Positions 1,808 to 51,348 of a DNA stretch of 64,000 nucleotides are shown piece after piece. The DNA comes from Flectonema sp. DT1601. Its lineage: Eukaryota. The notes beneath the pieces were generated by a model that was given only the letters and a program-made list of their open reading frames with translations, searched no databases and was not told the origin of the DNA. How positions within the stretch are numbered: position 1 is the first letter of the stretch; every line of letters begins with the position of its first letter. The position numbers and the translations under genes are program-made. The DNA lies in NCBI GenBank assembly GCA_964019425.1, contig OZ025805.1, positions 372,001-436,000 of the forward strand. The letters are read 5' to 3'.

Positions 1808-2369
1808 ATGCAAGTTTTTGTGACGTGTCCTGATTGGGGACTCCCCGCAGTGACAGTGACGGCTGGTGCTGATTCAGTTGTGAACGACGTGTTGACAGAG
1901 GCTGCTGAGGAATGGGATGTGGATCCGGAGGAAGTTGAACTCTCGTTTGCTGGTGATACCCTTTGCGAAATTGATCGGCTGGCAGATCATGGAGTGGTTG
2001 CAAACAGCGAGTTGGAAATGTGGAAGAAGCAGTTTAGGATATTCGGTAAAAGCTGGTTTGTTGATGATGCAAAACGGGAGCAGCTGCTTCTTTGGATGAG
2101 AGATCACATTGCGGAGTATTTATGTCTGGACACTGCCACATTCGCAGAAGATGGTTGCCTAACTGTTGACGGTGACCTTCTTCCTTCAGATGCCGAACAG
2201 GTAGCTTTCCGCAATTCAAATTCCAACAGCACAGCCATGTCATCAGTTACCACTATCGGAGATGAGTTCTTGTCTTCCTGTTCACAAATTACTTCTCTTG
2301 ACCTTTCAAGTCTTAGTAGTGTCACCACTATAGGAAACTTATTCTTGTCTTCCTGTTCACAAATCACTT

Positions 2370-2437
2370 GGGATCACGACACCTGCCTCCTCGCGGCGGT
2401 CCCGGACGACTTCGATAGGGGTCGACAAAACAGTGTC
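2370..2437 (+). ncRNA. HDV-like self-cleaving ribozyme at the LINE 5' end
   Basis: P1 GGGATC/GGTCCC; P2 GACAC(C)T/AGTGTC; P3 GCC/GGC with loop TCCTCGC; P1.1 CC/GG; P4 CGACTTC/GGGGTCG; J4/2 with C2426 followed by As. P1 is 6 bp and P2 is bulged, so the fold is slightly non-canonical. Confidence 0.72.
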
Positions 2438-5341
2438 AAACACAAGAGATGCCAACAACATCAAAACCATCAAAACCAGCTACAACATCCAGAGCATACA
2501 AACCCTGGCTTGTCAAATAAAGAACGGAATAAACTAGCCCATGCCTTGAATGGCAATGGTGGACCAGGAAAGGACAGCAGAGACCGACGCCCGCGAGACG
2601 ATACTCGCGACAGGGACGAAAACCGTCCAAACAAGGAGGAACGTCGCATAGCGAAGCTCGAGAAAGAGAAACTCGACTCGCTAGACGAGATAGAGGAAGA
2701 GAAGCAACGACTGGGGCAGCAGAGAATGGCCATGGAACAGCACCACCACCAGAAGGAAACCAACCTTCAAGGACAAGAAAAACAGTTGGAACAGCAACGC
2801 CAACACCAACAACAAGAACTGCAAAGTCAGTACCACCAACAACAGCAGCAACTGCAAAGCCATCATCAGCTGAAGGAAACGGAAAGTCTCCAGAAGGAGC
2901 AAAACCTACAGGCTCAACTCAAGGAGCGACACCAGCACCAACAGAAGGAATTGGAGAAGCAATACCGCCAACAACAACAGCAACTGGAAAGCCAACAGCA
3001 GAAGAAGGACGCCGAGTCTGAACAGCAAACACATCTGACTCGGTCACAACTACAGAAGGAAAAGGAATCCTTCCAGACAGAGAAGGAACGGCTCCACCTC
3101 CAGCTGGATCAGCAGTTGAAGAACGAGAAGGAGCACCTCCACCAACAACTCCAACAGAAGGAAGACGAGGTTCGTAAAGAAAAGTTAGCAGAGAGAATAG
3201 AACTCCAACAACTGCGAGATGAACTAACTCAACAAGAACAGAACATCCAACGACGTGAGGAAGAGGTGAACCGAGGACAGCACCAACTACACCAACAACA
3301 ACAACAACTAGAGCAGCAGCAACAGCAATCGCAACATCAGCAACTGGAACTACAACAACAACGGCAACAACAGCAACAGCAACAACAGCATCAACAACTG
3401 GAACTGGAACAACAACAACTACAACAGCAACAGCAACTGCAACAACATCGACAACCGCAACAACAACCGCAACAGCAACCCGTACACTACATGCAACATC
3501 AACCGTATGCAACGTACGACACCTACGCCCAGCAGCAGCAGTCTTCCCACTACGAAGGGCTACAACAGGAACTGAAGCGGGAAAGAGAGGAGAAGAGCGA
3601 ACTACGCGAGATGCTCCGAACTCTCCAACAACAACTGGACGGATTGAGAGAAGAACTCAAGGCCCAACATGCTGAGGCGAAGAGGCAGCAGGAAACGGCG
3701 GGACGAGAAGCGAGAGAGATGCAAGAACGTTTCTTGCTAGAACTCGAAGCGGAACGGGTCCAGATCAGAGGGCTCAACTCACTGAGAGAAGAGGAAGAGG
3801 AACTTCAGATGGACACCACCCCTGATCAGGAAGCAAACACGGAAGTGAAGCAAACGCCACCAGTGAAGCTGCCCCAAGACGGTATGAGGGAGCTGGACGC
3901 CTCACGCAAGAAGCTGATGAAAGAAATCAATGAAGGGCAGGTAGCCGGACGATCGGCCATCCAAGAGCAGATGGTCCGAGAGGCCGGGAGACTGGCGCAG
4001 ACTCAGAAGAGCTGGGAGAACGCAGCACGCAAGGAGCGATCCAGGGTGGATAACCTCTCGCTGGCACCGGAATACTGGCCAGAGGGAATGGCGATCACGA
4101 AGGAGCAGTACGACGCCGGTGCAAAGGGAGTACACCTCACCACCAGAGAGGAGGCAAGGAAGAGGATGTCGGGAACACCTCCGGGAGCCTGGGAAACGTT
4201 ATCCCTGGTAACCCTGGAACCACCATCAGACACGGCGCAGAAAGTACAGGTAGTACTAAAGGAGACGACGAGCGACGGCGAGAAGAGAATTCTCAAGCAG
4301 CTCTGGATGACAACACTGGGAAGAGTGGTTGTACCATCCGGAACAGACGTCGTGCGGACGGAAAGCACGAGGGAGATGGTTGTCCGGGTGGACAAAAAAT
4401 GGTCCGGAGAGAAGAGATGGTCGGAAGTGAAGCGCTCCCCGTTCAGGGCAACGGAGGAATTGAAGAAGATGCCGGGGTATGTCGATACGTACAACCCGCG
4501 GATCGGAGACCAGAGCGTGACCGTGATGCTCAGGGTGAAGGTAGCCGAAGTGAAGAACTTCCTCCGAGAATCGGGGAAGGACGGCGTCTTCACCAAGGAA
4601 AAGGATCCGAGAGAGGAACGAGCAGTGAAGGCGGCGGTCATTTGGCTACCGAAGGACGAGACGCTCGGAATCGCTCGGGACAAGGCTGTAGAAGTCGATG
4701 GAGGGCTGGGACTCGTGGTAAACGAACACGGACTCGGGCTTCGAGTGACCAGCTGGCAGGAAACGGCGGCGAGGGAGAAACTGCACCTGCCGGCTAAGCT
4801 ACCGGAAACAAAGATCACGGGTATCCCGATCGGCACAACCACCGACGAAGCGATCAAGTGGCTGATCACGAAGGAAGGCTGGGAAGTGAGGAAGACGAAG
4901 GAAGGCGTACGGAACGGCATGCGATGGATGGTCGTCCGCGGTCCGGTGAGAACGCAGGAAACCATCACAGTGGATGGCGTCCTGTGCATGGTGGAGGCTG
5001 GGAAACAGAAGGAGGAAGTCGACCCGAAACGGAAGGAGACCAAACGCCCGAATGCGACACCGACGAAACCAGAGAAAAGGCGTGACCCGACGGAGGGAAC
5101 GGGAGGAAAGTGGTACACTCGATTGGAGTTCATCGAGTTTCATGGGAAGAAGAAGGGACAACGCCTATGGTTAGAAGCCAGCAACCCAACACCAACTACG
5201 ACGGCACCTACGAAGACAGCGACCGCAACGACAACAGCGAGAAAGGAGCCCAAGTCGACAAAAAAGAAGGAGAACAGCTCAGTGGACGAGAGATTGGACC
5301 GACTGGAACGTCTACTGATGGCGTTCATGGAACGGAATTGA
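2370..5341 (+). CDS. LINE ORF1: Q/E-rich coiled coil plus globular C-terminal region; true start uncertain
   Basis: Open from the element 5' end (in frame with host ATG 1808) to TGA 5339-5341; first in-frame ATG is only at about 2725. Confidence 0.85.
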
Positions 5342-8300
5342 CCGGCGGAGGACGGAAGGAACTGGGCGGAGACACGGAGACGTCTCCTGCTACAAGCTGG
5401 CGACGTTGAGAGGAACCCCGGACCGAGACCACGAATCGATGGGCTCACCGTGGGAACAATCAATGTCACCACACTAGAAGGAAAAATAGATGCCATCACA
5501 GATCTGAACCTAGATCTGATAGCTCTACAGGAAACTTCTCTGACGGGCCCACAGCAACGCCAGATGAAAAAACAGCTCGGTGAGAGAGGATGGGAGGCGA
5601 CGTTCGGGTTAGAGTGCAAATTACTAACCGATGGGCAAAAGACGTGGACGGCGGCGGGAGGCGTGGCCATCTTGACGCGCACTGGTACACCGGTGAGAAG
5701 GATAAAACACGATCGGCTCGACAACACAGGACGATTCGTACACGCGGGAGTGTCGTACGGAAATGGCAAGGTACTGCACGTTTTCTCGTTCTACGGAGAC
5801 GTACGTTCGGCGGTCTACACGGAAGAGTTGATTGCGGAGATGCTCGTGGAAGCAGCAGCTCTGGGTGATGTTCCCGTATTTATAGCGGGGGACTTCAACG
5901 TCGAAACAACGGAATCGCCGGCGCTTCTGTCGGCTTTCGCACACGGACTCTGGATAGATGCCGCCGTCTCGATGGGAAACATGACACCGACAAGCGAAGC
6001 GGGAAAAGGACTTCGTAGAATCGATGCTATTCTGATGAACCGCGGGGCGGCGACAGCAATCTCGAATGACACAACGATCCATGTGCATAAGAGTGAGCTG
6101 ATCCCGACACACAAGCCGGTCATCATTAGAAAGCTCAACATCTCACGCTACAACGAGAAGGCTCCTAGGCTGATAGTACCGAAACAGTTGGATACCTCCG
6201 AGACAACGGACCCGCGTGAGGGGAAGGCCGAAAGGCAACTCCACTGGACGCGAGCTGTAGCGACGGAAGATCCTGACAAGATGCTGGAGGCGCTTGGAGA
6301 GATCATCGAAAGATACCTTCTGACGGGAAAGCTGGAGATAAGTAACCCAGCCAAGTACAAGGGACGCGGGAAGAAGCGTGAGCCTGTGATGTGGACGAAC
6401 GCGGCGAAACAAGACGGGAGAGGAGCGACGTGCAGGGAAACGCGGAGAAGACTGCAGAAGATACGTGTTCTGGAGGAAGTGATGAAAATCACAAAGCAAC
6501 GCGATGGTCCGACGGTGCCGTCCCACGAAGTAATGAAACTCTGGAAAAAATTACGAAAACTCGATCCGACGACGGGATCCGAAATACCACAGACGGAGGA
6601 GCTTCGGATACTACTACAACAAGCGAGACAGGAGCAAGCGATAGAAAGCAAGAAGCTCCGAACTGAACGCATCCGCATGTGGAAACGGAATGTTGTCGAC
6701 AATTGGAATGACGACCGCACGAAGGTTTTCCAGTGGATCAGGAACGTCGAGCAATCGAAGACTGTTCTGATGGAAAAGGCAGATGGAAGCTGGACGGCCA
6801 ACTGCTCCGAGATGGATGAGGCCATGCACGCGGCATGGGACCCCATACTCAAAAAGTACTTGTCAGACCCGGAACCAGACTGGATGAAGTTCGAAGAACG
6901 GTACAGCAACTACATCGAGGAACACCCGATGCGATGCGAAGATATCACCGGGGAGGACGTTGCAAAAGCCCTCAGAAGGACTAGCTCGCGCAAAGCAGCT
7001 GGGGTAGACGGCTTCAGGATATCGGAGCTCAAGTTGCTACCGGAGGACATGATCCAGATGATAGCGGAATTCTACAACATAGTGGAGAGAACACACTGGC
7101 CGGAAGCACTTCTCACGGCACTGGTGTCGGCCATACCCAAAGGGGCAGGGACGAAACCACTGGAGCAGAGACCCATTACGGTGACATCCGCACTTTACAG
7201 GCTATGGGGCTGTATACGTATGGAAAAGGATGTAATGGAGTGGCAAGAAAAGTGGGCTCACGACGGGCAGTACGGCTACCGGAAGGGGAGATCTACGCTC
7301 GACCTCAGCTGGAAGATAGCACTAGACGTGGAACACGCAACTCTCTACGGAGAAGAGATTGCTGGAGTGACCACGGACTTCAGGAAGTGTTTTGACCTGA
7401 TCCCGCACGACATCCTCCTGAAATTAGTGAAGGAATTGGGCCTCGGTAATAAGATCCTGAGAACTGTGACGGATGTCTACCGGCGACTCAGAAGGAGATT
7501 CAAGTTCCCGAGCGGCGTCGGAGAAGAATTTGCCACCACCAACGGAATACTGCAAGGATGCCCGCTCAGCGTGGTGCTCTTCAATGCGCTGAGCTCGATA
7601 CTCAGCAAAGCAATCGAGAGGGAAGCCGATGTGACGCCCGGATCGTATGCGGACGACCTGACATTGTTTGGATCACGAACGAAGCTACAAGAAGGCGTGG
7701 AAGTCGTTGCGGAGTTCTGCACCCTGACCGGACAAGAACTCGCGCCTCAGAAATGCAAGTGGTTCTCGAACAGAGACCAGAGCCAGACCAACATCACAAT
7801 GGGGGACACAACACTGGACTTCGATGACAGTGTCGATATCGTGGGATGCCACCTCAGTATGAAAGGAACCACCAAGCAGATGGGGAGGATCACAGAAGAA
7901 GTGCTCGATAGAGCGAGGCGAATCCGGTTACTTCCGCTCAGATATCAAGCGAAGGAACAGATAGCTGCAGCTAGTGTCATGCCCAAGGCGCTCTTCGGAA
8001 CGGCACTGTACGATCCCGATGCGACGCGACTCGGACTGCTGAGAAGAGCAATGGCAACGGGGATTTTCCGCAAACTTGGAGGGAAAAGAACTAAGATGTC
8101 GCACACCATGGGCCTAACGCTACTCTGCAAGGGACATTGTGTGGATCCCGCGACGTACATTAGGTACAACAGACTCCTTGCACTCACCAGAATGCTACCG
8201 AAGCTAACTGAGAGGATACGCAGGGTATGGGAACACCTGCAAGAGCACACTGAAGCGACGAGAGGACCAGTCGGCCTCGCCCTGAGTACTCTGAAGGAAC

Positions 8301-10078
8301 TTGGATGGGAATGGTCAACTTTCTCGGTCTTCGAAGGTCCGGGAGGGACGACCGAACACGGACGGCTGGATGCGGGGCGCTGGCGGCACGATGTCAGAGA
8401 GGCGTGCAGGCGTTTCACCTGGAACAAAACAATTGCGGAAACGAGACGGGTAAACCTGAGAGGTATTGAAGCGGGCATCGACCGGAAAGAGACCCTGAAG
8501 GTCCTGAAGGAAGGAAAGGGCGACCCCTACCTGCGCGGAGTAGTGAAGCACTGCCTCCTGGACAACGTGTACACTGGTTCGATGAAGGCGGGAAACAAGA
8601 ACTGCGCGCACTGCGAGGAGGTTGACGACGTAGAGAGGACGGAGACCCTCGAGCACGTGAACTGGGATTGCAGAGCTTATGACACGATCCGACAGGAATA
8701 CCCGCAAGTGATGCTACAAGTTCGAAGCGATTGGCCCAATTGCCTGAGGCTACTCGGCATCAAGCCCGACAATGTGGAACTGCCGGCGGGGCTCACCGGA
8801 GACCTACAACGAATGTTCGCACGGATCAGGCTCCGCAGGGACGAGTACCAACAACTGGAGGAGAGACGGCTGACGGTTGTGGAATACGCTGGGAACAAAG
8901 AACCGGAAGTAGTTATGCGATACAACAACAAACTGGAAAAGTACATGCCAGTATACACCCAATGGCCCGAAGCCCTTGGATTGACCTTGTACTTAGCGCT
9001 TGCGAGCTACCTGAGGGAACTGAAGTGGCCTCGACAGCCAGACGGGGTCGGAGTCACCTTCCTGGAATTAGCGATCGACTTCGAAGCGTATGCGGGGGTT
9101 GACATACCGACCACAGTCCACGAAGGCCACGTAGCGAAGTGCACCAAAGACAGAGCCGCCGGGAAGAAAGCTGACGTCATGTGTGGACTGATGCTAAGAT
9201 TGAACTTGGTTCACAAGCATTTAGAAGGCGAGGAACAAAGAACCTTTCCCGACTACTGCGTAGGAAGCAACAAAGCCTTACGTCCACTAGGAGCCCCGGT
9301 ACTGAAAGGTTTGAAGAAACGACCAGCTTTTCTGATGGGAGACGAAACAGTAGACACAATTCGGAGGACGGTCCAAGAGGCGAACGACGGAAAAGCTGAC
9401 AAAATCAGATTCGGCTTCGAGACTGAGTGCAGGCACTCGAGCGAGAGGGAAGGGAGAGCGGAGAAATGGATAACCGCGGCACGACTTTTCCCATCAAAGG
9501 AAAAAGACGTACAGCTGAGGAGGGAGCTCTGCGAGCGAGGACCGACACGCCCGCCACCCGAGGTCGTCAAGAGACCGGGCATCGCGGAGGGACAAGGAAC
9601 GATGAACTCGACGTGCTACGGACACTTCAAGAAGAAATGCAATAGTTGTCGACGGGCCGGAAACACCATCTACCAGTGCTGCCACAACCATCACACTCTG
9701 GGGGATGAAGATGGACAAATACCGATATGGGACTTTTGCAGCAAGCACAAGCTTACTCCATGTGCAGTCTGCATAGTGATCGGCAGAGGATCTGAGCAAT
9801 GTTGCAGAAACAGCCACCACCGATGCCGTCACCACGAGATGGCTCCCTGCAACGACTGCAAGCGGAATCCGGATCCGGAACAACGGACTGCCACGAAATG
9901 CTGCAACAAAAAGCATCACGGGCCAATTATAAGGACGTTGACGAGGAGGGCGAAGCAGCCGACGAAGCATGATATGCAAACCAGCACATCGCTTCTAAAA
10001 TTAGGTTTCACCAAACAAATGAAACCAAAAGCAGAGGAAACCCCTGAAAGGGAACCCCAGGACAAGGGGTTAACTTAG
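5342..10078 (+). CDS. LINE ORF2: 2A peptide, APE endonuclease, reverse transcriptase, CCHC zinc finger, C-terminal Cys/His repeats
   Basis: APE motifs TINV, IALQET, GGVAIL, AGDFN, RIDAIL, PTHKP; RT motifs QRPIT, DFRKCFD, GILQGCPLS, YADD (7646-7657); CAHC...ETLEHVNWDC; frame is open from the base after the ORF1 stop. Confidence 0.95.
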   Translation, partial: PAEDGRNWAETRRRLLLQAGDVERNPGPRPRIDGLTVGTINVTTLEGKIDAITDLNLDLIALQETSLTGPQQRQMKKQLGERGWEATFGLECKLLTDGQKTWTAAGGVAILTRTGTPVRRIKHDRLDNTGRFVHAGVSYGNGKVLHVFSFYGDVRSAVYTEELIAEMLVEAAALGDVPVFIAGDFNVETTESPALLSAFAHGLWIDAAVSMGNMTPTSEAGKGLRRIDAILMNRGAATAISNDTTIHVHKSELIPTHKPVIIRKLNISRYNEKAPRLIVPKQLDTSETTDPREGKAERQLHWTRAVATEDPDKMLEALGEIIERYLLTGKLEISNPAKYKGRGKKREPVMWTNAAKQDGRGATCRETRRRLQKIRVLEEVMKITKQRDGPTVPSHEVMKLWKKLRKLDPTTGSEIPQTEELRILLQQARQEQAIESKKLRTERIRMWKRNVVDNWNDDRTKVFQWIRNVEQSKTVLMEKADGSWTANCSEMDEAMHAAWDPILKKYLSDPEPDWMKFEERYSNYIEEHPMRCEDITGEDVAKALRRTSSRKAAGVDGFRISELKLLPEDMIQMIAEFYNIVERTHWPEALLTALVSAIPKGAGTKPLEQRPITVTSALYRLWGCIRMEKDVMEWQEKWAHDGQYGYRKGRSTLDLSWKIALDVEHATLYGEEIAGVTTDFRKCFDLIPHDILLKLVKELGLGNKILRTVTDVYRRLRRRFKFPSGVGEEFATTNGILQGCPLSVVLFNALSSILSKAIEREADVTPGSYADDLTLFGSRTKLQEGVEVVAEFCTLTGQELAPQKCKWFSNRDQSQTNITMGDTTLDFDDSVDIVGCHLSMKGTTKQMGRITEEVLDRARRIRLLPLRYQAKEQIAAASVMPKALFGTALYDPDATRLGLLRRAMATGIFRKLGGKRTKMSHTMGLTLLCKGHCVDPATYIRYNRLLALTRMLPKLTERIRRVWEHLQEHTEATRGPVGLALSTLKELGWEWSTFSVFEGPGGTTEHGRLDAGRWRHDVREACRRFTWNKTIAETRRVNLRGIEAGIDRKETLKVLKEGKGDPYLRGVVKHCLLDNVYTGSMKAGNKNCAHCEEVDDVERTETLEHVNWDCRAYDTIRQEYPQVMLQVRSDWPNCLRLLGIKPDNVELPAGLTGDLQRMFARIRLRRDEYQQLEERRLTVVEYAGNKEPEVVMRYNNKLEKYMPVYTQWPEALGLTLYLALASYLRELKWPRQPDGVGVTFLELAIDFEAYAGVDIPTTVHEGHVAKCTKDRAAGKKADVMCGLMLRLNLVHKHLEGEEQRTFPDYCVGSNKALRPLGAPVLKGLKKRPAFLMGDETVDTIRRTVQEANDGKADKIRFGFETECRHSSEREGRAEKWITAARLFPSKEKDVQLRRELCERGPTRPPPEVVKRPGIAEGQGTMNSTCYGHFKKKCNSCRRAGNTIYQCCHNHHTLGDEDGQIPIWDFCSKHKLTPCAVCIVIGRGSEQCCRNSHHRCRHHEMAPCNDCKRNPDPEQRTATKCCNKKHHGPIIRTLTRRAKQPTKHDMQTSTSLLKLGFTKQMKPKAEETPEREPQDKGLT
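5381..5425 (+). other. 2A/StopGo ribosome-skipping peptide RLLLQAGDVERNPGP
   Basis: Exact D(V/I)ExNPGP match with the typical upstream LLLxxG, in the ORF1/ORF2 frame. Confidence 0.92.
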
Positions 10079-12181
10079 GTTGGCCGAACCAGTGCCTCGT
10101 CATCTCACCGTGCTAGCAAGCCTGAATGACAGCACTCAAAATGGTACATATATTCCTGTTCACAAATCACTTCTGTAAACCTTTCAGGTCTTAGTAGTGT
10201 CACCATAGTAGGAGGTGGATTCCTGTTTTCCTGTTCACGAGTCGTTTCTCTTGATCTTTCTTGTCTTAGTAGTGTCACCACTATAGGAAACTTATTCTTG
10301 TCTTCCTGTTCACAAATCACTTCTGTAAACCTTTCAGGTCTTAGTAGTGTCACCATAGTAGGAGGTGGATTCCTGTTTTCCTGTTCACGAGTCGTTTCTC
10401 TTGATCTTTCTTGTCTTAGTAGTGTCACTACTATTGGTGATAATTTCTTGTCTTACTGTTCACAAATCACTTTTCTCGACCTTTCAGGTCTCAATAGTGT
10501 CACCTCTATTGGTGATGATTTCTTGTATTCTTGTAAACGGATAGCAACAGTTGACCTTTCAGGTCTTAGTAGTGTCACCACTATTGGGAATAATTTCTTG
10601 TTTTCCTGTGAACAAATCACTTCTCTTGACCTTTCAGGTCTTTGCTGTGTTACTTCTATTGGAGATAGTTTCCTTTCTTTCTGTACACAAATCACTTCTG
10701 TGAACCTTTCGGGTCTTGATAGTGTAACCGCTATAGCAAATGACTTCTTGCGTTGTTGTGTATGTATTATTTCTCTTGATCTTTCAAGTCTTATTAGTGT
10801 CACCACAATAGGAAGTAATTTCTTGCGTAGTTGTTCAGAAATCACTTCTCTTGACCTTTCAAGTCTTGGTAGTGTCACCACTATTGGTGATGACTTTCTC
10901 AGTGAATGCGACGCTCTTGAATCTGTGCAGCTGCCTGAAAGTAATAGCGTTCTCTTTGAGGAGTCTGTGAAAGCAGCGATTGATCACTCAGGTTAAAGTG
11001 GTGAGTTGATTCTTAAAGTTTTGTTATTTTTGTTATTTTTGTTTTATTAATTAGTTGACCTTCGTGTACATTCTGACTAAAATATGAAAACTTCTTATCA
11101 AAGATTACGGAATAAGAACAATCATCGATTTGAGAACTACTTTAAAAGGTATTCCGGTCACATAAAAGAAAGGAAAGAAGAGTAAGAAAAGAAAATAATA
11201 ATTAAGAATATTTAAGAAAATAATATTTAAAAAAAGTAAATAAGTAAAAAAAAATGCTCCACAAGGCCGTGACCGTGGTATACGTTTCTCCAAACTTTTG
11301 GTTGGAATTGTAAGTTTTCCCTTAATAAAAAGTTCATTGTGACGATAACAACCCCATTTTTATTCTCCTTTTTAAAACTTTCTTAATATTTTATTGCATG
11401 GCATTCACTCCAGATCGAAGTTAATATTATTTTTCTTAAAACAGCGACACGGATGTAAATTATTAGAGACAGAGGCTATCCGGAATTTTACATTTTTATT
11501 AAAAATGCTTTTTTTTAATCTAAACTTCCATCACAGGATAATTTTTCTCACAAGAACTCTTGCGATGCAGGTTTCTGTAGTGTTTCCCGACTCAGGATTT
11601 GGAGATGCAGTTTTGACATCAACATCAGAGTCTGTCGTACGTGATGTTATAGAAACAGTTAACTGAGGAATGGGATGTTGTCAGAATTTATTGAGATGAT
11701 CGTATTGCGGTGATGTTTTTTAGAAAGGAATGGTTTTACTGATTTGAATAAGATAAATAAACTGCTAACACCGAGTAATGACATTTATTTTGAACAATAA
11801 AATTAGATTCGACTTGTGAGACATTTACTGTTGAAGATGTATTGATTTGATATCGAGTTGGGTAATTGTTTCCTATCTAACCTTCATTTGGTAATCTGAT
11901 CAGAGTTTACATTTGGTTGGGAATATTTGAAAAAAATAAGCAGGGAAGTTCTCCATTGATATCGGAAATGAGTACCTAGGCATGGGTCACATCCTTGTAG
12001 TGTTCACTTTCATTCATTCAGGTCACTGAAACAGATGAATCCTTTAGTAAAACAGTATTCATACCCCTTTGAGGGAATGTAATTACATGTCGCATCCTCG
12101 TAGTACTCGATACCCAGATGTCACTTGTACGAGTTCTTTCTAACAGAACCTTTCCCACCTCACAGCAAATTATTTAAAAAA

Positions 12182-14055
12182 GGGTTATGGCCCAAAATAC
12201 CCCAAAGTGGCCCAAAATACCCCGAAGTGGCCCAAAATACCCCAAAGTGGCCCAAAATACCCCGAAGTGGCCCAAAATACCCCGAAGTGGCCCAAAATAC
12301 CCCAAAGTGGCCCAAAACCCGGTCTGGCTGTGCACCCTGGGGTCCCAACCACATAGCTGGGTATGAGGATGGGTCACAGTCACCAGGTATTACTCATACA
12401 ACCATCAGGGTTTAGAGCATCACAAGCACCAGACAGGTCACCTAAATTTACTCGAAAGTTTGGGCAATTCGAACGTCAGCATTCACATTAGCAAGCAACC
12501 AGTCCTGAGTACTTAAAGAACCCAACCATTACGTGTATCAGCCACAGTCACACTTAGTATAGCGTTAGTACAGAGGACACGGATCTGCTATGCAGGGAAG
12601 TGACTTGAACTCGTTCAACTAATTAATGTGTGCAGATATAAGCGCCGCGAATTGACGGGTCTGAAGTTATGCTTTCCGAAGAGAGTAACCACCCACGCGA
12701 GTGTTATTTTGACGCCATAACCTGTAGCTTTCAACACATAACAACCAGGGATAATTCTCAGTAAGGCCGCCGTCACCGTGAAGCTGCTACGAATATAACC
12801 CAACAAACTAGCAATTCCTCCAACTTTGTTCATATGTGCAGACACATAGTCAGCTACACACTTGGAGACTTTCTTAATCTCTTTAAGCTACTTTGCTTTA
12901 GCAGTGGATCTTGCTTATACTATTTTTTTGGCTGAGTTTCAGTGGCAGCAGGTTGAGTTTCAACTATGTTTCGGGCATCTTAGAGATTGAGAATAAAAGT
13001 TCGTAGTAAAAGAGTAAAAGCCTAGAGAGAATGAAAACATTTGTGATTAGGAACCTGAACACTTTACTGAACGAAGCATCGTAGGCAACCAGTTTCCTTC
13101 GAGAATCTGCAGGTGGTGCAGGGCTAAATCGAGATGAGGAAGATAACACCCGTACACCTTAAGCGCACACGGATGTTGAGATAACGTTTGTATGATGTTC
13201 ACTTGACGAGATTATCAAAGACAAATACTCACGGATAGGTTGGGTTGCTCTTCAGGTCCTGATAGTATTCTCAGCCTCTGGAAGTTTTACTGAGTGCATG
13301 CAAAGAACGGTATGTGTGCAGGGCTGGGTCACCTTACAGAGAACTGCTGTCCTCTTACACGTCATTCCAACCGAATTTCAAAGTCAAGACACCTGCGAGT
13401 TACAGACAGCCTGGTCGCAAGCGACACTCCTGTTTCTGACCGGGTTATCAGGGTATCTAACTCATGCAGGCATGAGAGCTTTTTTAAGGCTACTTTGAAT
13501 TATCAAGAGCGCAGTACTGCCCGAAGGGTTCCCGCGTGTCAAGATGCATTTGCATGTACTGAGCAGAAGTTCCAGAAAGAAGATTACTTTTATCATTTCC
13601 CAAGTCATCACATCCTTAACCGTTTGTGTTATTAGCTTTCAATCAATCCATTACCATAAATCCACAGATGAGTGTGCTGAATAGAAAGTAAAACGGGACG
13701 GCAAAAAGCTTTTGTCCAAGTGACACAGAAATACTGGCCAGGCAGGTTCCAAAAAGAAGTTTCAAGAAAAAAAAACAAGAAAAAAAAAAAAAAAATTGGC
13801 AGTGGAAAAAGTTACAACTTGTAGTGAACAGCGAAAAAAAAAACATCACTTCCAGTTTCTGTACACACATTATCCTGATTTACAAGTTCCCAAAGCCGGG
13901 TTCGGTATATTTTGGACCACTTCGGGGTATTTTGGGCCACTTTGGGGTATTTTGGGCCACTTTGGGGTATTTTGGGCCACTTCGGGGTATTTTGGGCCAC
14001 TTTGGGGTATTTTGGGCCATTTGCAAAAAAAGTGGGGTATTTTGGGCCATTGCCC
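12182..14055. mobile_element. Non-autonomous foldback/Mutator-like DNA transposon with minisatellite TIRs
   Basis: Ends GGGTTATGGCCC... and ...GGGCCATTGCCC; arms of 20-bp tandem units GGCCCAAAATACCCC(A/G)AAGT (about 12189-12318 and 13905-14048, inverted); 9-bp TSD TTTAAAAAA at 12173-12181 and 14056-14064; empty site visible near 1795-1803. Confidence 0.88.
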
Positions 14056-14944: not shown

Positions 14945-15059
14945 TGGCCTTCCGACGCCACCTGGACCGCAACTCGTTCACAGTGCCCTACCCGGTTCTC
15001 CACCGGACCGTCTGAGCGACGGGATCCATGGGATTCAAACCCCTAAACACTGGTTAATC
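14945..15059 (+). mobile_element. 3' fragment of the ~690-bp ribozyme-headed short retroelement
   Basis: TGGCCTTCCGACGCC...CACTGGTTAAT matches the last ~115 bp of the full copies and abuts an LRR at the usual register. Confidence 0.9.
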
Positions 15060-15154
15060 TAATTGTTCAAGGATTACTTCTCTTGACCTTTCAGGTCTTA
15101 GTAGTGTCACTGTTATTGGAGATTGCTTCTTGTGTTGCTGTAAACAAATCACTA

Positions 15155-15227
15155 GGGTAACGAAACTCGGACAGCGCGCCTCCTCGTGGTGTTGCCTGGA
15201 TGCACCTTGTGTGTAACTAGAGTGCTG
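15155..15227 (+). ncRNA. HDV-like ribozyme heading the short retroelement (also 51349-51421, 52362-52434, 53149-53221, 54025-54097)
   Basis: P1 GGGTAAC/GTTGCCT with G1-U wobble; P2 CAGCGC/GTGCTG; P3 GCC/GGT with loop TCCTCGT; P1.1 CC/GG; P4 TGCAC/GTGTA; J4/2 ACTAGA. Confidence 0.9.
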
Positions 15228-15834
15228 ACGTATTGTTGTTGTTGCTGTGTATTCTTTTACCCCCGTTTTATTTTCCGGTAGCCTAACCTTTAAAAAAAAA
15301 GGACAACATAGCAGAAGGTCAGGTGATCCGGCCCGGGATACTCAGGCACCCAGAGCTCACAGGGGCCACCGGGTTTTTATTTTTTCCTTAGTGGCATGAT
15401 TTCCCTTTACCCCCATTTCCTTCAAACTTCCCCCGTTTAGTCTTTTCACGCATGGGGGGATTATAAGTTCAGGTCGCCTGAAATGTATTAACAGTATCAG
15501 CCCCGCGAGTTACTCGGGAAGCTCCCATGCAATGTGTGGAGAAAGAGGCCATCCCTCCCCCTACCTCTCTGCTTTACTACGTCGTTTTTTGTGTGTGGCA
15601 TTTCTTTTCTTTTCAATCCTGTTCTTTCACACGCGGTTGTTCGAGCGGTTGTGAACCACCTTGGGTCTCTTACGGTCTCCAAGCTACTGTTGTGCGAAGA
15701 AACAAATCTGTTGGTGCGGTGGCCTTCCGACGCCACCTGGACCGAAACTCGTTCACAGTGCCCTACCCGGTTCTCCACCGGACCGCCTGAGCGACGGGAT
15801 CCATGGGATTCAAACCCCTAAACACTGGTTAATT
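15155..15834 (+). mobile_element. Non-autonomous short retroelement (SINE/SIDER-like), copy A
   Basis: 20-bp TSD TTGCTGTAAACAAATCACTA at 15135-15154 and 15835-15854; near-identical to four copies at 51-55 kb. Confidence 0.95.
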
Positions 15835-17816
15835 TTGCTGTAAACAAATCACTATTCTAGACCTTTCTAGTCTCCATAGTGTCACCACAATTGGTCATGG
15901 TTTCTTGTATTCCTGTTCACAAATTACTTTTCTTGACCTTTCAGGTCTTACTAGTGTCACCGCTATTGGTGATCGCTTTATCAGTAAATGCGACTCTCTT
16001 GAATCTGTCCAGCTTCCTGAAAGTAATAGCGCTCTCTTTGAGGAGTCTGTGAAAGCAGCGATTGATCATTCAGGATAAAGTGTGAATTGATTCTTAAAAT
16101 TTTGTTTTTTTTAGTGATTTTTGTTTTATGGGAAAATAGTTTGCGAAATCGCCAACTCCCTACAAAAAAAAGTTGTCCACCAGGACTCGAACTTGACCCA
16201 AAATTTTGGCTTGCGGCGGGTTTTTTGTTTTTTAGCCTACCAAGCTGGGAAGAGTGCAAGGGGGGGCTTGCGTTATAGGTGGGAGGTTTACCAACAATGA
16301 AATACCACTACTCTTATCGTTGCTTATCCAATGATGGGGGAGCGGCAGCTGCCTCTTCGGAGGTTAGGGTCCTTTCGGACTCGTGGCTTTGACGATAAAA
16401 AACCCATTTTTATTCTCCTTTTTTTTCTTGTTTGAAAAATAAAACAACGAAATGTAATTTTTTTAATGCATACGAAATTTAGTCGCATGTATTTTAAGTC
16501 AGAGTTCGAACCTGGACATGTTTTAACAGGTCCGGCGCAGTTATGACCCTTAAACTGACTGTCATCTTGCCTGATCCCTTTGGTTTTCATTTCTTGCTGA
16601 GTGATATGGCTATGTGCTGCCCAAATCTTTTGTGGTACATTCCTAAAGCTTTTCGGTAAGCCCACAGTACAATTATAATGCTTTGGACAACTGGGGGTGA
16701 ACGATCCTCGGTACTGTTCCGGGGTTTTCTATCGTCTTTCGTGGAGTGTGGGCATATGGCACATGTGGTCGTATTATAAAGAAAGATGTATATGAAAGAA
16801 AGAAGTTTTTTTATTTTTTTCACCTTCCCCCCACTCCCGGATCATTTCTCTTTTATTTTCTTTAGTTGTTTACAACCTGTTAGCCTCTGGGCAAGGTGGA
16901 AGCTGGAAGTCGATCACTTCCAGCCAATACTATGAAACTACAATCTTCGCGATTGGGTCCTTACTGATGCGGGCTGCCCACCCCTCGTAGTCATCAGTTT
17001 GTATTTTGCTAACTAAACTAAACTAACTACAAGAGACCTGTTGTTAAGACATTCTCCCTCAAGCATCCACAGCACATGTTCAGAATTTGTCATCGCGAAG
17101 CGCTGACAAACATTATGAAGCGTTCTGGAAGCTAGCCATCTGTAAATATTGTAAAGGAGACGGAAAAAGATTTAAAAAAAAAAATATTATGAACTCGTAA
17201 ACCGGAACTAAAAATAAAAATAAAATAATATGTCACCACAAACACACTTGAACCATCTAAACAACGGGAACAGAACAAAACAAACCAAATCACATAATTA
17301 ACAAAAAAAAATGATAAAAAGTGCAAAAAAAAAAAAATGAAAAGAAAGTAATCAGCTTCAAACTAGTGCTAAAATTCCCAGCAACTTGCGTTGGGCGCCT
17401 CCACACCTTCGCTCATGTTGATACTATAAAGGTGTGTGTGCTGATGGCCTCAGTCTTCAAAAAAGATAAAATATGTTAGATCACCACATTGATTAAAAAA
17501 AAAATACTCAAAACTAACTGAGTCAAGACGTAGGGAGTGAGACACTAAGAAGTTCCTTCCTCAATGTTAGATTATTAAACAGAGCAAAGCAAACTAATAT
17601 CGAAAGCACAATCACATGACCTACAACAATAACGTTGTGTTCTTTTTTTTGATACGATTCAATAATTTATACTTCTCTTTCGAAATAGCATGATCGACAT
17701 GGGACGGATCTTTTTTTGCGTAATCAATAAAAGAATAACAATATAAGGGAAGTTGAACTGACAGTAATCTTTTTTGTGTGATACTGCTTTTTTGTATCAT
17801 TGTTATCTTCCATTAT

Positions 17817-41442: not shown

Positions 41443-41830
41443 TATCGGTTTTTTATATTATAATTAAGTTAGATATTTTTCTCCTAACCTCCTCTTCTTC
41501 CTCCTTCCTCATATTTCTTTTTTTTTAGATTTCGTTAGACTAATTGTGATATCATTCTGTCTTGTTCTATATTTATATTATTATTGTTATTGTTTGCGAC
41601 AGGAATCATCATCAAATTATGGGTGTTTTTCGGTTATTTATTTTTTTATTTTTTTTGTTTTTTTGCAAAAACAAAGTTTTTTAGGCAACCCAAATTATGA
41701 AAACTACAACAAAAATACCCCCCAAAAATAGGGATTGCGATCCAAAGAAACAGTTCTTAAGCACTTTAGAACAAGTCTTTGAAAAATCTCAAAAAGTGTG
41801 AACCAGTAACTGAGGGGGGGGGGGGGGTAG

Positions 41831-43799
41831 GGGGGGTACAAGCTGTCGATAAAGTACTTTTTCCGAATTTTGGTAAATATAACCTTCCCGGGGGCAAAAA
41901 TTACCCAGGACCCCATCAGAACCCCCAAAAATGTGATTTCGGGGCCGAAAAAACCTCGATTTGGCTGATTTCGGCAAGGGAATGAAATATCTCAAAAAGT
42001 GTGGACCGTGTGGTACCTGGGGGTCCAATTTTGAGGACTGTGAAATGCACCTTCAAATAATTTTTTTTTACAATGAGAAGAGGTGAGTCTTGGTGTGCCC
42101 CTGTATGCGCAGTTTGCTAATATACCATTTCCGTATCAGTTTCCACCTCAAGAACACGCCACGAAAAAGAACAGCGCTCTCGCTCGGCCATGCTTGAGGC
42201 CACGAGGCTCACGGGCAGGATAACGCAGCGGAAAACAACGTTCTGCAGGGCAGCTCACAAAGTCATTCTGCGGAGGAGAGCATTGATCCCAGAGTGCATG
42301 AAAACACCTCCCGAGGCATCTCTGAAGTTACTCAACAACACTTGGACAGTCAGAAGTAAGATACGCGTGAGAAAGGGGTCAAGAAACGTCCAGTATCTGA
42401 ATCGTGATCACAGAAGGCTCACAGAGTGGAGAAAGCGCCACGTCAGTACCCTAAACAGGGATAATCCTGAAGACAGCTGTAGTGGTAGTGCGTCAAATAG
42501 CAGTGCCATAGATAAGCAGCAGCGACATAGGGCAACATGCCCTATCCAAAAAGCCATTCAAGGCATCACTTAAGACCCAACCATACTCACCAGCGGGGCA
42601 TACAAGACACTCTAGTATATGCAGCATAAGGAGAAGTACGAAAGACACACCCGCTTGCAACTGTACCCAAACGAGGGGGATATACTCCTGGAGTCTTGGA
42701 GTCGTAACAACACTGCAGATATTGCGGCAAGAAGGGATCGGCGCAGAGACATCCAACTAAGTCCTGAGTGAGTGACATAGTTGAAGCTGTCGCAGGTGCG
42801 CAGATGGAAGAGAAGCGGGTCGAAGTCACTAATTATATCTTGAAGGACAGTCCGACTTGTTGATGGATTCACAGGTGATCTGTCGGTGACCTGACTTCTT
42901 GAAGCAGCAGCTTCCTCCTCACCCTCCGTCACATCGCTGCAGCATGATACTTCCTCTAGCGCCCGTCGTGCTCGTGGGATGAAGCTAACAACCGTGGCGT
43001 TCGTTGTCATCCTGCACCCCTCAAGGGATGGGGAGGTTATTCAGTGTTGTTGATAGTTCTTGGTCAACTGATGGAACCAGTGGCGTGAATGCTACTCTAC
43101 TGATAACGTACAACATATTCCAGAGGTACACGGACTTCCAAAGGCTACCACATCAACGCAGGACCACCGACCCTCTTCAGATTGGCAAGAACAAGCACAA
43201 CAGGAGGCGCTACAGGGGCTGAACGTACCACCCCGTCCTCACAGGGAAGACCTCTAGACAGCAAGGTCTAATACTAATCTGCCATCTGTATCCAAGGATT
43301 GGTCCTCTGTCTATCTTGTACAGAAAGAAGCACAGCTTCGGGCCGAATTTCGAAAGCTGAGCACATGGGATGTTCAAGAGAAGGCCAGTAGCCTAAACAT
43401 CGGACATGGGGGAATTAACAAGCCGGTCTGGTGGAGCATATTATTAAGGTTCAAATCAGGACGATAAAAATAAAAATTGGGTTCCCATTTCATTCCCCAC
43501 TCAACTCAGAGGGAAACCCTGGTTATGGATTGCTCAATGCACGGAATTACTTGTAATTTTTGTGAGCCCTCCTAACACACCCTTGTTTTCACCCCCCTCA
43601 GGTACCACACGGTCCACACTTTTTGAGATTTTTCAAAGACTTGCTCTAAAGTGCCGAAGAACTGTTTCTTTGGATCGCAATCCCCATTTTTGGGGTATAT
43701 GTTGCAGTTTTCATAATTTGGGTGCCCAAAAAACTTGTTCTCCGGAAAAAAACCGAAAGTGCCCAAAATCTCCGTAAAATCGATGCTTGTACCCCCCCC
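41831..43799. mobile_element. Non-autonomous TIR DNA transposon with G-run termini; further end fragments at about 41620-41810 and 45692-45827
   Basis: GGGGGGTACAAGCTGTCGAT ... ATCGATGCTTGTACCCCCCCC, flanked by TAG on both sides; subterminal inverted block ATCTCAAAAAGTGTGGACCGTGTGGTACCTG. Confidence 0.75.
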
Positions 43800-43803
43800 T
43801 AGG

Positions 43804-45333
43804 ACGACTGTACTTCAAAAGAAGACACAAGTCATTGCAAATGATGAACTCACACAGGTCCCGCCGATAATTCCAACAATGATACCAACACCAATTACAA
43901 ATTTATCACAATCGACACCGTCAATTGTACTTCAAAAGAATACACAAGTCAGTGCGAGTGATGCACTTACACAGGCCCCGCCGATAATTCCAACGCTGAT
44001 GCCAGCAAGGATTTCAAAAATATCACAATTAGCACCGCCGACTGTAATTCAGAAGAAGACACAAGTTATTGCAAATGAGGCACCTACAATGGCCCCACCT
44101 GCAATCCCAACGTTGATGCCAGCAACGATCTCAAAGGTATCACAATTGGAACCTCCGACTGTACATCAAAGTGTGATTCAATCTATGAAAACGATACAAT
44201 TACCGATTGTATCACCATTGGATCTGGATCATAATGATGTGGATATGATCGATATGCCGTCACCAGCAACAGTACAACTGGATACGGACACTGACATGGT
44301 AATGGAAACTATGTCACCAGAGACGCAGGAATCACCGGAGCATAGATATGCTGGCTTAATGACTCCATCCAAAGACAGGATGGAGTCACCACCAATAACT
44401 CCGATTAAGATTAAGACTCCACTGAAAATAAAGACGCCTCTGAAGATCGAAACTCCGACTAAAATAATTCCACAAACCCAACAAGCATGTTGGGATGGAA
44501 AGAACCTCGAATTAATACGAAGTTTGTCAAAAGAAAGACAGTTGGAGAAAATAGTCACCACATACAGACTAAGATCAACTACACCACAAACAGTAGCCAG
44601 GAAGATGGAAACACCACCTACTGTAAGCAGTAAAGCCACGAATTCCGGAACAACAATACCGATTACACCACAAAAGGTATCAAGAGTACTAACATACACA
44701 GATACAGAGAATATCGGTAAAACTTGCAAATATTGCAATAAATCCTGGAAGTCATTTATTGACCATATCAATAAATGTGGAATATTCAGAGCATCAAAAT
44801 AATATCCAACATATGTTGATGAAGATGATAACACTTCATTTACGGTCACTGAATACAAAACGGATCCTCGAAATAGTATTGTAACTGTTACAAAAGATGA
44901 GACAGAAACTCATATGTTATCTATCAAAAAGAATGGCAAGTTGGCAACACAAACGGTCGCTGATGAACCAGAGAGAAGCAGTAACAAGAGACTGAACTCA
45001 CAGAGTCCAATGCGAATTGTGAGAATCAAAAAATACCTGAGCAACCGGAAAAGGCTTAAAAATGAGTGTACTGAACATAAGTTGGCACAGAAAATGAAAC
45101 TTAAAGAAGTACAAAAACAGAAATTAGCAAAGGGAAAGGAAAAGAAGAAACTGAAATTGGTAAAAAGACTCAACTCGCAGAGTCCAATGAGACCGATGCT
45201 CAGAAGAAATACTCGAAAGAAAAGAAGCAAACAAGATGAACATGATTCTTCAGATGATATGAGTATTTCACAGAGATCTTCAACTCCAGATATCCCTGAT
45301 GCTAAGGAACAATTATCAGACTTTGATAATTAA
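43804..45333 (+). pseudogene. 5'-truncated T/P-rich repeat protein with C2HC finger and basic tail; one internal TAA (44800-44802)
   Basis: ORFs 43735-44802 and 44914-45333 share a frame and are separated by one stop; about 39-aa repeats; CKYCNKSWKSFIDHINKC. Confidence 0.6.
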
Positions 45334-45493
45334 AAACACTTTCTACAATTATTGTAGAAAAGTGCTCCACTAGTAGTGAGCTAAGAACTAGTAACAGCAA
45401 AAAATATGTTTTTTTTATTTATGAACATGAAACGCAAAGTAACTACATTCCAGTCCTGCAAACTGGAATGACTCAGTCTCAACATTTGACTGA

Positions 45494-45560
45494 CTTACTT
45501 CTACACCATACTGATGAGAGAGAATAGAGGTAAGAGGTATATGGATTACTCTCGAAACCT
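45494..45560 (+). ncRNA. Candidate permuted hammerhead ribozyme
   Basis: CCATA-CTGATGA-GAGAG ... AGG-TA-TATGG ... CTCTC-GAAA-CCT, plus a 10-bp extra helix. Confidence 0.6.
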
Positions 45561-46397
45561 ATAGTTACTTTAATATGCTAAGTTGCGCATCACCCTTAGT
45601 CACTGTATTTTAAAACTAATGTTAAATTATCTTTATGTTTTTATGATACAACACAGTTGTAATTTTTACAAAATCGAACATACATCCCCCCTAGGGGGTA
45701 CAAGCATCGATTTTACGGAGATTTTGGGCACTTTCGGTTTTTTTACGGAGAACAAGTTTTTTGTGCACCTAAATTATGAGAACTGCAACATATACCCCAA
45801 AAATGGGGATTGCGATCCAAAGAAACATGTGGCTCAGATAGCTCATAATTCATCATAAGTTGTGACTTCATATAAAGAAAGTGTTGTACAAGTGTTTTCA
45901 TTAAGTATCAAAGTAGCACACGTAAACCTTCTTTAACTTTATCAGTTTCGGTTCACGGGGTTTCGTGACACAAACAAAACATCACAGTTGTTATATTATT
46001 ATTTTCTGTATAGTTCAAGATAAAGCCAATTCTCTTTTAGTAAATATAAACCCATTGTTGTTTGGTAGAGCGTAATTAACCTATTCCTTTATTAAAGATT
46101 TTTTACTGGTTGCGCCAAAACAAAACTAAAATGAAGTGCAATTTGCCGATTCCTTTTTACCCAGGTAGTACTTTTACAAAGAATGTAGAACCGAATTGGT
46201 TAAACATTTCATTACAGGAATCTAACAACATGTCGCATTCTTCGTAGTATTCGATACCCAGACATGATTCAATGTAGGGATCGTATTTATATAATTGTTG
46301 CCGCCTGGCGTTTGGAACACAACATCCACACATTCTTTACACAGCAGCCATATATTAACACCCCACAGCAAATAGTAATTCAAAAAACTAACAAACA

Positions 46398-49389: not shown

Positions 49390-51348
49390 AGTAGTGAATG
49401 GGTTCATTTGTCTTTAATAATTTAAAGAAGATTCTCTGATAGGAAGATTGATACCAACAATGTCATTCAACATGTCGATTCACGTGGAGTAGCTGTTGAA
49501 GACAATTAAAACAGAAAACACGACTTCTTGATGTGGTGACGGCCTGATCAATAACAACTAATACAAATCAATTTTTTCTTACAACTGGAACTGTGATGTA
49601 GTAATTGTTAGTGAGTGTTTTAACTACTTAGTAAGAGGGAAATAATAAAAGAATGTAGTTGTTGGAACCGACTCTACTAAATTACATTACCGACAATTAA
49701 CGTTTCGGTTGGGTTGTCGGAGCAAGAAAGAGAGAAGTATTTTGTCACATGCTTGGTAGTCTTTAATATGTTTATGCTCGATTTCCTTTTCTCTATTTTC
49801 TTGTTTTAGTACTTGCCTGTACTTACTGCTGAACTGATTCGGTGAACCACAAAATCTCTTTTTTCTCAATTCAGGTGACAAGTATGTGATGCCAACCTCA
49901 TTTAAATTAGTGAGAGCAACCAATCGAATCATATTACTGTAATCATAAATAACGTGGTGTGTAAAGAAAATTAGAATGGAACAATTTAAGAAATTAAAAA
50001 GGGGACGGTGGATTTATAAAAAAGTATTGAAGCACACATTTTGACTGTAAAATAGTAGTTTTTGAGAGACCATTGGGTACCTTCAGAAGGCAATAGTCCC
50101 ATACTTTATTATAAAATGCCAGGGAGCTGGGACTCCAATCGGATCACCCTGGCCTCGCAGTATATGACCAGTTTAGGGGACAGATAACTGAGGAAGTCCT
50201 AGACTAATCCTAACAGCCTTGGTACACAAGACCAACTTTAACCAGTTCAAATGTCGATAATTTAGTATCAGAAAATCAAAAACTTTATTTGCTAAAGTGT
50301 TTTCTGTGAATGTTTCTACTATTAAAAAACTGTGATTCTCTAAAAAGGCTCGTCACGTCTCATTTGGTCTATTGCAAAGGACGGTTACAAGGACTCGGCG
50401 TCACGCGGAAACTCGAAGAAAAATGCCGAGCAGTACAGAATAGACGCGGCAGCCTCCATAGAAGACACAAGTTTTGCGAAGGTGATGTGAGGATTACTGG
50501 CCGCCTAGCACACCTCGATATGATACATTCACTTCCAATACGAGTGAATGTATTAACAGTGTGTTCAAAGAAGCTCGTCAAACCTCGATTCTGGGGATTA
50601 TAAGATCGACATGAATGTGGATCGCTAATACTTTCGCAAAGCGACGGGGGATGTATTTTGGTGAAGAGGGAGTCGCACCGCTGCCAAATGTGAAAGATGT
50701 TATTGAGTTGTCAGTAGCACTCATGGCTCAATGTACCGTGAAATAGATTAGAACAGGGAAGCTGTGAAACACATTTGTGAATTACTTTTGTACACATTCT
50801 TTACACAGCAGCCATATATTAACACCCCACAGCAAATAGTAATTCAAAAAACTAACAAACAATGCAAGTTTCCGTGACGTGTCCTGATTGGGGACTCCCC
50901 GCAGTGACAGTGACGGCTGGTGCTGATTCAGTTGTGAACGACGTGTTGACGGCGGCGGCTGGGGAGTGGGATGTGGATCCGGATGAAGTTGAACTCTCGT
51001 TTGCTGGTTGTACCCTTTGCGAAACTGATCGGCTGGCAGATCATGGAGTGGTTGCGGACAGCGAGTTGGAAATGTGGACGAAGCAGTTTAGGATATTCGG
51101 TAAAAGCTGGTTTGTTGATGATGCAAAACGGGAGAAGCTGCTTCTTTGGATGAGAGACCACATTACGGAGTATTTATGTCTGGACACTCTCACATTCACA
51201 GAAGATGGTTGCCTCACTGTTGAGCGTAAGTTGCTTCCTTCAGATGCCAAACAGGTTGCTTTCCGCAATTCAAATTCCAACAACACAGCCATGTCATCAG
51301 TTACCACTATCGGAGATGAGTTCTTGTCTTCCTGTTACCACATCACTG

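Follow-up and report, generated by a model that had tools for sequence, protein, structure and literature searches.

A conserved in-frame UGA and a 2A-type leader between ORF1 and an AUG-less ORF2 in a LINE of Flectonema sp. DT1601: a candidate case of readthrough followed by StopGo

The element and its two reading frames

A stretch of 64,000 nucleotides from Flectonema sp. DT1601 (GenBank assembly GCA_964019425.1, contig OZ025805.1, positions 372,001 to 436,000 of the forward strand; hereafter the window, with position 1 as its first letter) contains a retrotransposon without long terminal repeats (LTRs), that is, a long interspersed nuclear element (LINE), which encodes an apurinic/apyrimidinic endonuclease (APE) and a reverse transcriptase (RT). 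Its two open reading frames (ORFs) share one frame and are separated by a single UGA, past which ORF2 opens into a 2A peptide of the StopGo type. The features on which the analysis rests are the following.

2370..10152, + strand: full-length APE-RT non-LTR retrotransposon (LINE), 7783 nt, one copy in the 64-kb window
2350..2369, + strand: 5' target-site duplication, 20 bp, within a repeat unit of a host BspA-type leucine-rich repeat (LRR) gene
10153..10172, + strand: 3' target-site duplication, after which the host LRR gene continues to 10996
2369..5341, + strand: ORF1 of 990 codons, whose frame is open from the first bases of the element; first in-frame AUG only at 2726
2510..2560, + strand: N-terminal conserved motif of ORF1, S-x-K-x-x-N-x-x-x-H-x-x-x-G-N, which precedes the coiled-coil-like region and the first AUG
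5339..5341, + strand: in-frame UGA, the conserved end of ORF1 and candidate readthrough codon
5342..5425, + strand: leader of 27 codons ending in a canonical 2A, with a predicted skip between Gly (5420-5422) and Pro (5423-5425)
5342..10078, + strand: ORF2, 1578 codons, with 2A, APE, RT and a Cys/His-rich C-terminus; ends in TAG
about 5489-6058, + strand: APE, Pfam Exo_endo_phos, ORF2 amino acids (aa) 50-239, E 1.9e-6
about 7157-7783, + strand: RT, Pfam RVT_1, ORF2 aa 606-814, E 1.8e-23

The target-site duplication is a perfect 20-bp direct repeat on both flanks, no terminal self-match, and hence no LTR, was found in 2370-10152, and the GC content of the element is about 0.50-0.56 vs 0.31-0.48 elsewhere in the window. 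ORF2 falls into a cluster of 22 members, many of them broken, which are dispersed over many contigs. The element represents a young, intact, active-looking, multi-copy LINE family. Comparison of ORF2 with a second copy on contig X1 gave 24 differences, 16 synonymous and 8 non-synonymous (pN/pS 0.15, p 8e-6); ORF2 is under purifying selection.

The ORF1 frame is open from position 1766 down to the UGA and runs from a Q/E-rich, coiled-coil-like region through a conserved alpha/beta domain (about 4049-5000) to a C-terminal helix. This domain had no match in Pfam or Atlas. Its AlphaFold model is of low confidence (pLDDT, the predicted local distance difference test score, 47.6), and the fold search gave no match at E 0.001 or better, the top matches being proteins with tandem RNA recognition motifs at a non-significant E of 3e-3 or worse. 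The SxKxxNxxxHxxxGN motif occurs in 14 ORF1-type proteins, that of the window included, and near the N-terminus of protein P0115; in P0120, P0142, P0145 and P0192 it stands directly ahead of the APE, at the place where other relatives carry a 2A. Possibly the motif is a signal for skipping or cleavage that has so far gone unrecognised. A stretch near the end of ORF1, LEASNPTP, is 2A-like at first sight and was rejected, as it is not conserved.

The UGA and its conservation

The junction reads ATG GAA CGG AAT TGA CCG GCG, with the UGA at 5339-5341 as the sole in-frame stop between ORF1 and ORF2 and 1578 open codons beyond it. A sequence-only reading of the window had claimed a UGA and then a 2A in a common frame between the two ORFs, and the junction sequence confirms this. 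A frameshift was rejected, since ORF2 lies in the frame of ORF1 and both alternative frames run into a stop, at 5407 and 5475. ORF1 and ORF2 together contain 44 TGG codons and zero internal TGA, and UGA is therefore not a general sense codon here.

Conservation of the UGA across copies, on which the same reading hinged, was followed in 30 ORF1 relatives from six protein clusters and in the X1 contig, copies of the element being sampled as proteins and this one contig only. The same stop column ends 28 of the 30 relatives. Six of the eight close copies end in ...LMAFMERN and the other two break off early. In the clusters that are about 57-63% identical, all 22 members stop at that same column (...LVGSK/GK). 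None of the 30 continues into the 2A. The X1 contig (depth 2, possibly from the source sample) crosses the junction with 8 differences in 1801 nt and leaves the UGA unchanged, and over 4600-9659 it differs from the element at 28 positions, none of them at the UGA. Some X1 variants recur in other copies, such as G/N to S/D at 7445-7448, as in P0003. A private nonsense mutation was rejected, the stop being common to copies and subfamilies. Sequence runs X2 and X3 held nothing matching the element's body, a search of proteins of 969-2765 aa (7992 candidates scored) returned no fused close relative, and a first metagenome scan with a three-sequence alignment and a viral scan returned no relatives.

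The 2A leader and the start of ORF2

The DVERNPG/P core begins at 5402 and places the skip site 27 codons past the stop; in six frames of the window DVERNPGP is the only match to [DGCN][VI]ExNPGP. The core fits the 2A definition (D/G/C/N)(V/I)ExNPGP, and the upstream residues LLLQAG resemble the LLLLSG-like hexapeptide group (PMC12846837) and also the corresponding residues of P2A (10.64898/2026.09.24.754024). Both sequence features of a StopGo/2A, the core motif and a suitable upstream stretch of about 18-30 aa in frame with a Leu-rich hexapeptide, are thus present. Residues 2-28 past the stop are identical at 19 of 27 positions to the 2A region of the Flectonema protein P0004, vs 57% over ORF2. 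This likeness reaches back to codons 2-6; ribosomes therefore appear to have entered the frame no more than about 15 nt past the stop, and the stretch directly past the stop is probably translated.

Between the stop and the 2A, all three frames are free of ATG. The first in-frame ATG, at 5564 (Met75), lies downstream of two APE motifs, GTINV at aa 38 and LQET at aa 62, which bears out the earlier claim that none precedes the first APE motif. Within the first codons past the stop the only in-frame near-cognate codon is AGG. Further down, an in-frame GUG at 5450 (Val37) in an ACC-GUG-G context had gone unmentioned in the sequence-only reading, as had the 5' ribozyme-like fold described below. 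Among the 15 of 22 ORF2-cluster members listed, 8 are called from GUG 5450, none reaches upstream of it, and the longest has 1542 aa. Gene callers cut such AUG-less ORF2s and hide their 2A, and protein-based surveys of 2A therefore miss this layout.

Predicted RNA structure around the stop

Two structures are predicted downstream of the UGA.

5365..5391, + strand: predicted 9-bp bulged hairpin, 23 nt past the stop, which extends GGAGAC-8nt-GTCTCC (5368-5387)
5398..5471, + strand: predicted long stem-loop that spans the 2A core and the first strand of the APE, pair probabilities 0.9-1.0

The hairpin has pair probabilities of 0.71-0.92 in three folds of 200-311 nt and 0.92-0.97 in a 181-nt fold, and it is absent from the minimum free energy structures of three folds of 79-119 nt. 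The first 40-120 nt past the stop fold no better than shuffles (z -1.0 to +0.3). Over 200 nt past the stop z is -3.2 (0 of 200 shuffles); in 2 of 30 further 200-nt tiles along the element z is equally low. Only one of three folds contains a long-range stem of 10 bp that begins at the first base past the stop. Directly upstream of the stop, a hairpin at 5272-5326 has z -2.3.

Relatives and their layouts

The closest ORF2 relatives outside the family are Flectonema neradi transcripts (57-60% identity), and a tree of 41 rows groups the element with three Flectonema proteins with support of 100/100. Going by the Flectonema neradi relatives, the host is likely a diplonemid. Closest among the relatives are P0004 and P0005; the ORF2 of P0004 starts with a Met of its own and a domain resembling Josephin (Pfam E 0.012, below the cut-off).

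Of 152 relatives, 94 could be aligned at the APE start, and the 75 residues upstream were inspected. A canonical 2A core was found in 5, an NPG/HPGP variant in 28 and neither in 37, with 24 being too short; an OTU protease domain precedes the APE in 7 of 18 long relatives. A release element before the APE is therefore common in the clade. The P0115 family (4 members, 2678-2834 aa) combines a homologous ORF1 domain, OTU, APE and RT in one stop-free ORF, its match to the hidden Markov model (HMM) of the ORF1 domain having E about 1e-14 among 186 targets, with a best E of 0.65 in the reversed control. P0181 and P0156 also join an ORF1-like domain to the APE, weakly (E 3e-4 and 1e-3 on iteration). 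It is likely that the present layout derives from a one-ORF polyprotein consisting of ORF1 domain, processing element and APE-RT, as the P0115 family still encodes.

Nucleotide sequence was available for 15 loci (L001-L015), of which 7 extend upstream of the APE; one of these, L011, is cut, leaving 6 that are informative. In L001, L007 and L002 an open frame leads to an in-frame UGA, past which the frame stays open to a 2A or 2A-like motif and the APE. The codon after the UGA is UGC in L001, CAA in L007 and CUG in L002, and 39, 75 and 332 open codons, respectively, separate the UGA from the motif; L001 and L007 have no in-frame AUG ahead of it. The ORF1 HMM found no match in L001-L015, so their upstream frames are ORF1-like by openness and composition only. 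These three loci are evidence of recurrence of the layout and not of selection for it. A search for ORF2 relatives of 304-968 aa gave one distant match only.

Some of these loci are peculiar in themselves. Between its ORF1-like end and the APE, L012 carries two 2A motifs in different frames (470-830), being either a frameshift layout or a decayed copy. In L001, a frameshifted copy, stop and AUG overlap at 97-101 (UGAUG), the AUG being the start of a short ORF in another frame; this could be a remnant of a stop-start junction. L011, L012 and L013-L015 are eukaryote-type LINE contigs inside bacterial and archaeal metagenome-assembled genomes, likely by binning contamination.

Proposed mechanism and alternatives

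We lean slightly towards UGA readthrough followed by StopGo as the way in which the ORF2 protein (ORF2p) is made. Most ribosomes would stop at the conserved UGA and release the ORF1 protein (ORF1p), and a minority would read through to synthesize ORF1p-X-leader-2A; 27 codons past the UGA the latter would skip at the predicted 2A and yield a free APE-RT beginning with Pro. The outcome would be an excess of ORF1p over ORF2p, with readthrough setting the ratio. This reading accounts for why the two ORFs share a frame, why likeness at the coding level begins with the first codons past the stop, why a 2A is needed and why one-ORF relatives exist.

Several observations weigh against it. The sequence-only reading had pointed to UGA-C and a following hairpin as favouring readthrough; both exist, but the Type II UGA readthrough consensus is UGA-CGG or UGA-CUA with a 3' stem after a spacer of 7-12 nt (PMC3159437), while here the context is UGA-CCG, the hairpin lies 23 nt past the stop and the three same-layout relatives (L001, L007 and L002) have no downstream structure (z -1.0 to +1.2). 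The gene-caller proteins of the 22 divergent ORF1 copies give the position of the stop and neither its identity nor the frame beyond it. No ORF2 partner of these copies (P0024-P0027 and P0034-P0051) was found among the protein searches, and they are possibly ORF1-only non-autonomous elements. In P0004 and P0005 alike, ORF2 opens with a Met of its own and a Josephin-like domain, and in P0005 the 2A is lost; the conserved leader may therefore be inherited rather than selected in place. Among the other loci, L002 has in-frame AUGs ahead of its motif, L008 and L005 place ORF2 in a different frame with its own AUG, and L012 has several stops. Neither the layout (same frame in 3 of 6, p 0.32) nor the stops of the relatives (UGA in 3 of 3, p 0.24; UGA-C in 2 of 3, p 0.14) exceed chance. 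Besides, an in-frame gag-UGA-pol junction alone gave no readthrough in the case of Tca2 (PMC2194720).

Alternatively, ribosomes may terminate at the UGA and reinitiate independently of AUG within a few codons, the 2A then trimming a short variable leader to a constant Pro start. We regard this as rather unlikely, and as the strongest of the competing explanations. ORF1 itself has no AUG ahead of its first conserved motif, so the element may begin translation without one, and termination-reinitiation in L1 is reportedly AUG-independent. The hairpin directly upstream of the stop would also suit it, and in L1Tc/ingi-type elements the 2A likewise acts behind a short leader. Termination-reinitiation has been reported for SART1 and proposed for L1 (PMC3708506, PMC5972666, PMC10275272); SART1 requires downstream RNA structure, and the 200 nt past the present stop are structured. 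Nevertheless, an in-frame restart would be needed within about 5 codons of the stop, a stretch in which AGG is the sole near-cognate codon, and a start at CUG 5387 would keep only 12 residues of the 2A. Furthermore, reinitiation needs no common frame, yet ORF1 and ORF2 share one, and one-ORF relatives exist.

It is improbable that ORF2 starts independently at GUG 5450, internally or on a trans-spliced or sub-genomic RNA, with the 2A as a relic. The context of this GUG is strong and Kozak-like, a spliced leader (SL) is added to diplonemid mRNAs (PMC10161547), the Tca2 junction carries a cryptic promoter (PMC2194720), and the 2A can decay, as in P0005. A start at Val37 would however cut into the first APE strand, at a residue that is Leu in P0004, and the 2A is conserved better than ORF2 overall. 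The variant in which an SL acceptor and an AUG give ORF2 its own mRNA, held by the sequence-only reading to be fatal to its proposal, was checked and rejected: an ORF2 begun at Met75 would lack the first two APE motifs, and the best junction pyrimidine tract before an AG is weak, scoring 9/12 (at most 6 T) vs 10-12/12 upstream of four host genes.

That the stop is removed in RNA, by splicing or UGA editing, or decoded as selenocysteine or Trp seems very improbable. The stop is a UGA, and diplonemids have non-canonical introns. Spliced or edited RNA copied back would, however, yield fused copies, and none is present among 30 ORF1 members, 15 ORF2 members and the X1 contig; all 44 Trp codons are TGG, and the 74-nt 3' untranslated region shows no selenocysteine insertion sequence (SECIS)-like fold by eye and no Rfam match. 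A UGA=Trp code, splicing or editing of the stop and selenocysteine were rejected on these grounds. Finally, a disabling mutation at the stop, or an ORF2 that is a non-translated relic spread in trans, is largely refuted. Broken copies are frequent in the ORF2 cluster, but the stop column is kept across clusters about 57% identical, ORF2 is intact with the low pN/pS given above, and the target-site duplication is perfect.

Comparison with known systems

Gag-stop-pol retroelements free their enzymes by their own protease, and viruses such as cardioviruses stack StopGo with frameshifting. The former are LTR elements, whereas in the present LINE a 2A would do the enzyme release. Gammaretroviruses of this kind (UAG with a pseudoknot) and Candida Tca2 (UGA) share with it a structural and an enzymatic ORF in one frame, with one stop between them (PMC3159437, PMC2194720, PMC3542737), the mechanism of stop bypass in Tca2 being left open (PMC2194720). 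Type II UGA readthrough in alphavirus, tobravirus, furovirus and coltivirus resembles the junction in its UGA-C and a predicted 3' structure within 200 nt, and differs in the codon context and stem distance noted above (PMC3159437). A published table of readthrough cases lists viruses and retroviruses only (PMC3542737).

Within LINEs, a close likeness is to the L1Tc/ingi elements of trypanosomatids, which have an HDV (hepatitis delta virus)-like 5' ribozyme (PMC4035085), predicted here, and a 2A directly before the APE (PMC3708506, PMC3894237). Unlike these elements, which have one ORF and no ORF1, the present one has an ORF1 of 990 codons and an in-frame stop before the 2A (PMC3708506, PMC3894237). 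A 2A before the APE is found mostly in LINEs without ORF1, and the three named exceptions, CR1-26_BF, CR1-53_BF and CR1-1_LG, have ORF1 and 2A together ahead of ORF2, as here (PMC3708506, PMC3894237). Similarly, ORF1p-2A-ORF2p proteins of Cordylochernes scorpioides place a 2A between the two domains (PMC13405545). The descriptions consulted of the CR1 exceptions and of Cordylochernes scorpioides mention neither an in-frame stop between ORF1 and 2A nor an AUG-less ORF2, both of which the Flectonema element has. Other reported arrangements include a 2A that precedes ORF1p coiled coils and an ORF2p that carries a Josephin or OTU domain (PMC13405545). With SART1 and L1 the element shares a bicistronic LINE RNA and an ORF2 downstream of a long ORF1; unlike SART1 (UAAUG overlap) and L1 (63-nt spacer and AUG), its junction has neither AUG nor spacer (PMC3708506, PMC5972666). 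No LINE with this combination was found in the literature covered, supplements and most subscription journals lying outside that coverage.

The 5' end of the element and its host site

Besides the junction, the window holds a candidate ribozyme at the 5' end of the element and a family of host LRR genes.

2370..2437, + strand: predicted HDV-like self-cleaving ribozyme, beginning at element base 1, with candidate catalytic C2426
1808-2369, 10153-10996, 14070-14741, 46392-47393, 48496-49389, 50856-51368 and 55741-56937: BspA-type LRR genes or parts of them

The predicted ribozyme folds as a double pseudoknot with P1 (6 bp), P2, P3, L3, P1.1 and P4, in which all five helices pair; in canonical HDV-like ribozymes P1 has 7 bp. 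A descriptor composed post hoc from the site matched once in 128 kb (both strands) and in 0 of 300 shuffles. Rfam gave no match for 2370-2437 and nothing credible across 2200-10300. As judged from this fold, the 5' end of the element RNA is probably made by the predicted ribozyme. In divergent ORF1 subfamilies (P0025-P0027, P0038, P0042) the N-terminal peptide matches another frame of the ribozyme sequence, so these subfamilies likely share it; some of the copies adjoin poly-A runs.

The host BspA-type LRR gene family is expanded, with 75-nt units, and several members are interrupted by insertions. The LRR_5 match is weak on the interrupted copy that hosts the element and strong on a paralogue. 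Four copies (window 2350-2372; P0022, P0032, P0033) are inserted at the same phase of the LRR unit and in frame, giving LRR-ORF1 fusion ORFs, which suggests a target-site preference. Near-identical repeats of about 0.8-1 kb lie in LRR genes at 14950-15900 and 51250-54780, with five or six copies at 99-100% over 300 nt; this family is possibly a SINE (short interspersed nuclear element)-like element with the same target. At 12187-14022, a segment of about 1.8 kb is inserted immediately ahead of an LRR gene; long inverted arms built from tandem 20-nt units bound it, and it resembles what is left of a DNA transposon. At 43663-45827 and 41712-43704, long inverted repeats (134 nt, 97%) surround ORFs at 43717-45333, the first of which has no Pfam match; this unit is a probable DNA transposon. 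No tRNA was found in the window.

Implications

Each part of the junction is known, and their combination is a new arrangement of known parts. Luke et al. (2013, PMC3894237) call the start of ORF2 translation in LINEs an open and important question, and argue that the 2A takes over from ORF1 in braking ORF2. In the element described here both ORF1 and the 2A are retained, an in-frame stop is added and the AUG is gone. For a cassette of about 250 nt, opposite outcomes are expected from readthrough and from AUG-free reinitiation, and Diplonema papillatum is genetically tractable; either outcome would add a mechanism for LINE ORF2. Readthrough at this stop codon, if true, would be a first for non-LTR retrotransposons, and its coupling to the 2A the tightest stack of readthrough and StopGo in a cellular genome. 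More tentatively, the family may belong to a protist LINE clade with a retrovirus-like polyprotein logic, in which one frame is used, a UGA-readthrough valve would set the ORF2 dose in several lineages, and canonical 2A, GEAxxPG-type 2A-like motifs, OTU or Josephin proteases and SxKxxNxxxHxxxGN would serve as interchangeable release modules.

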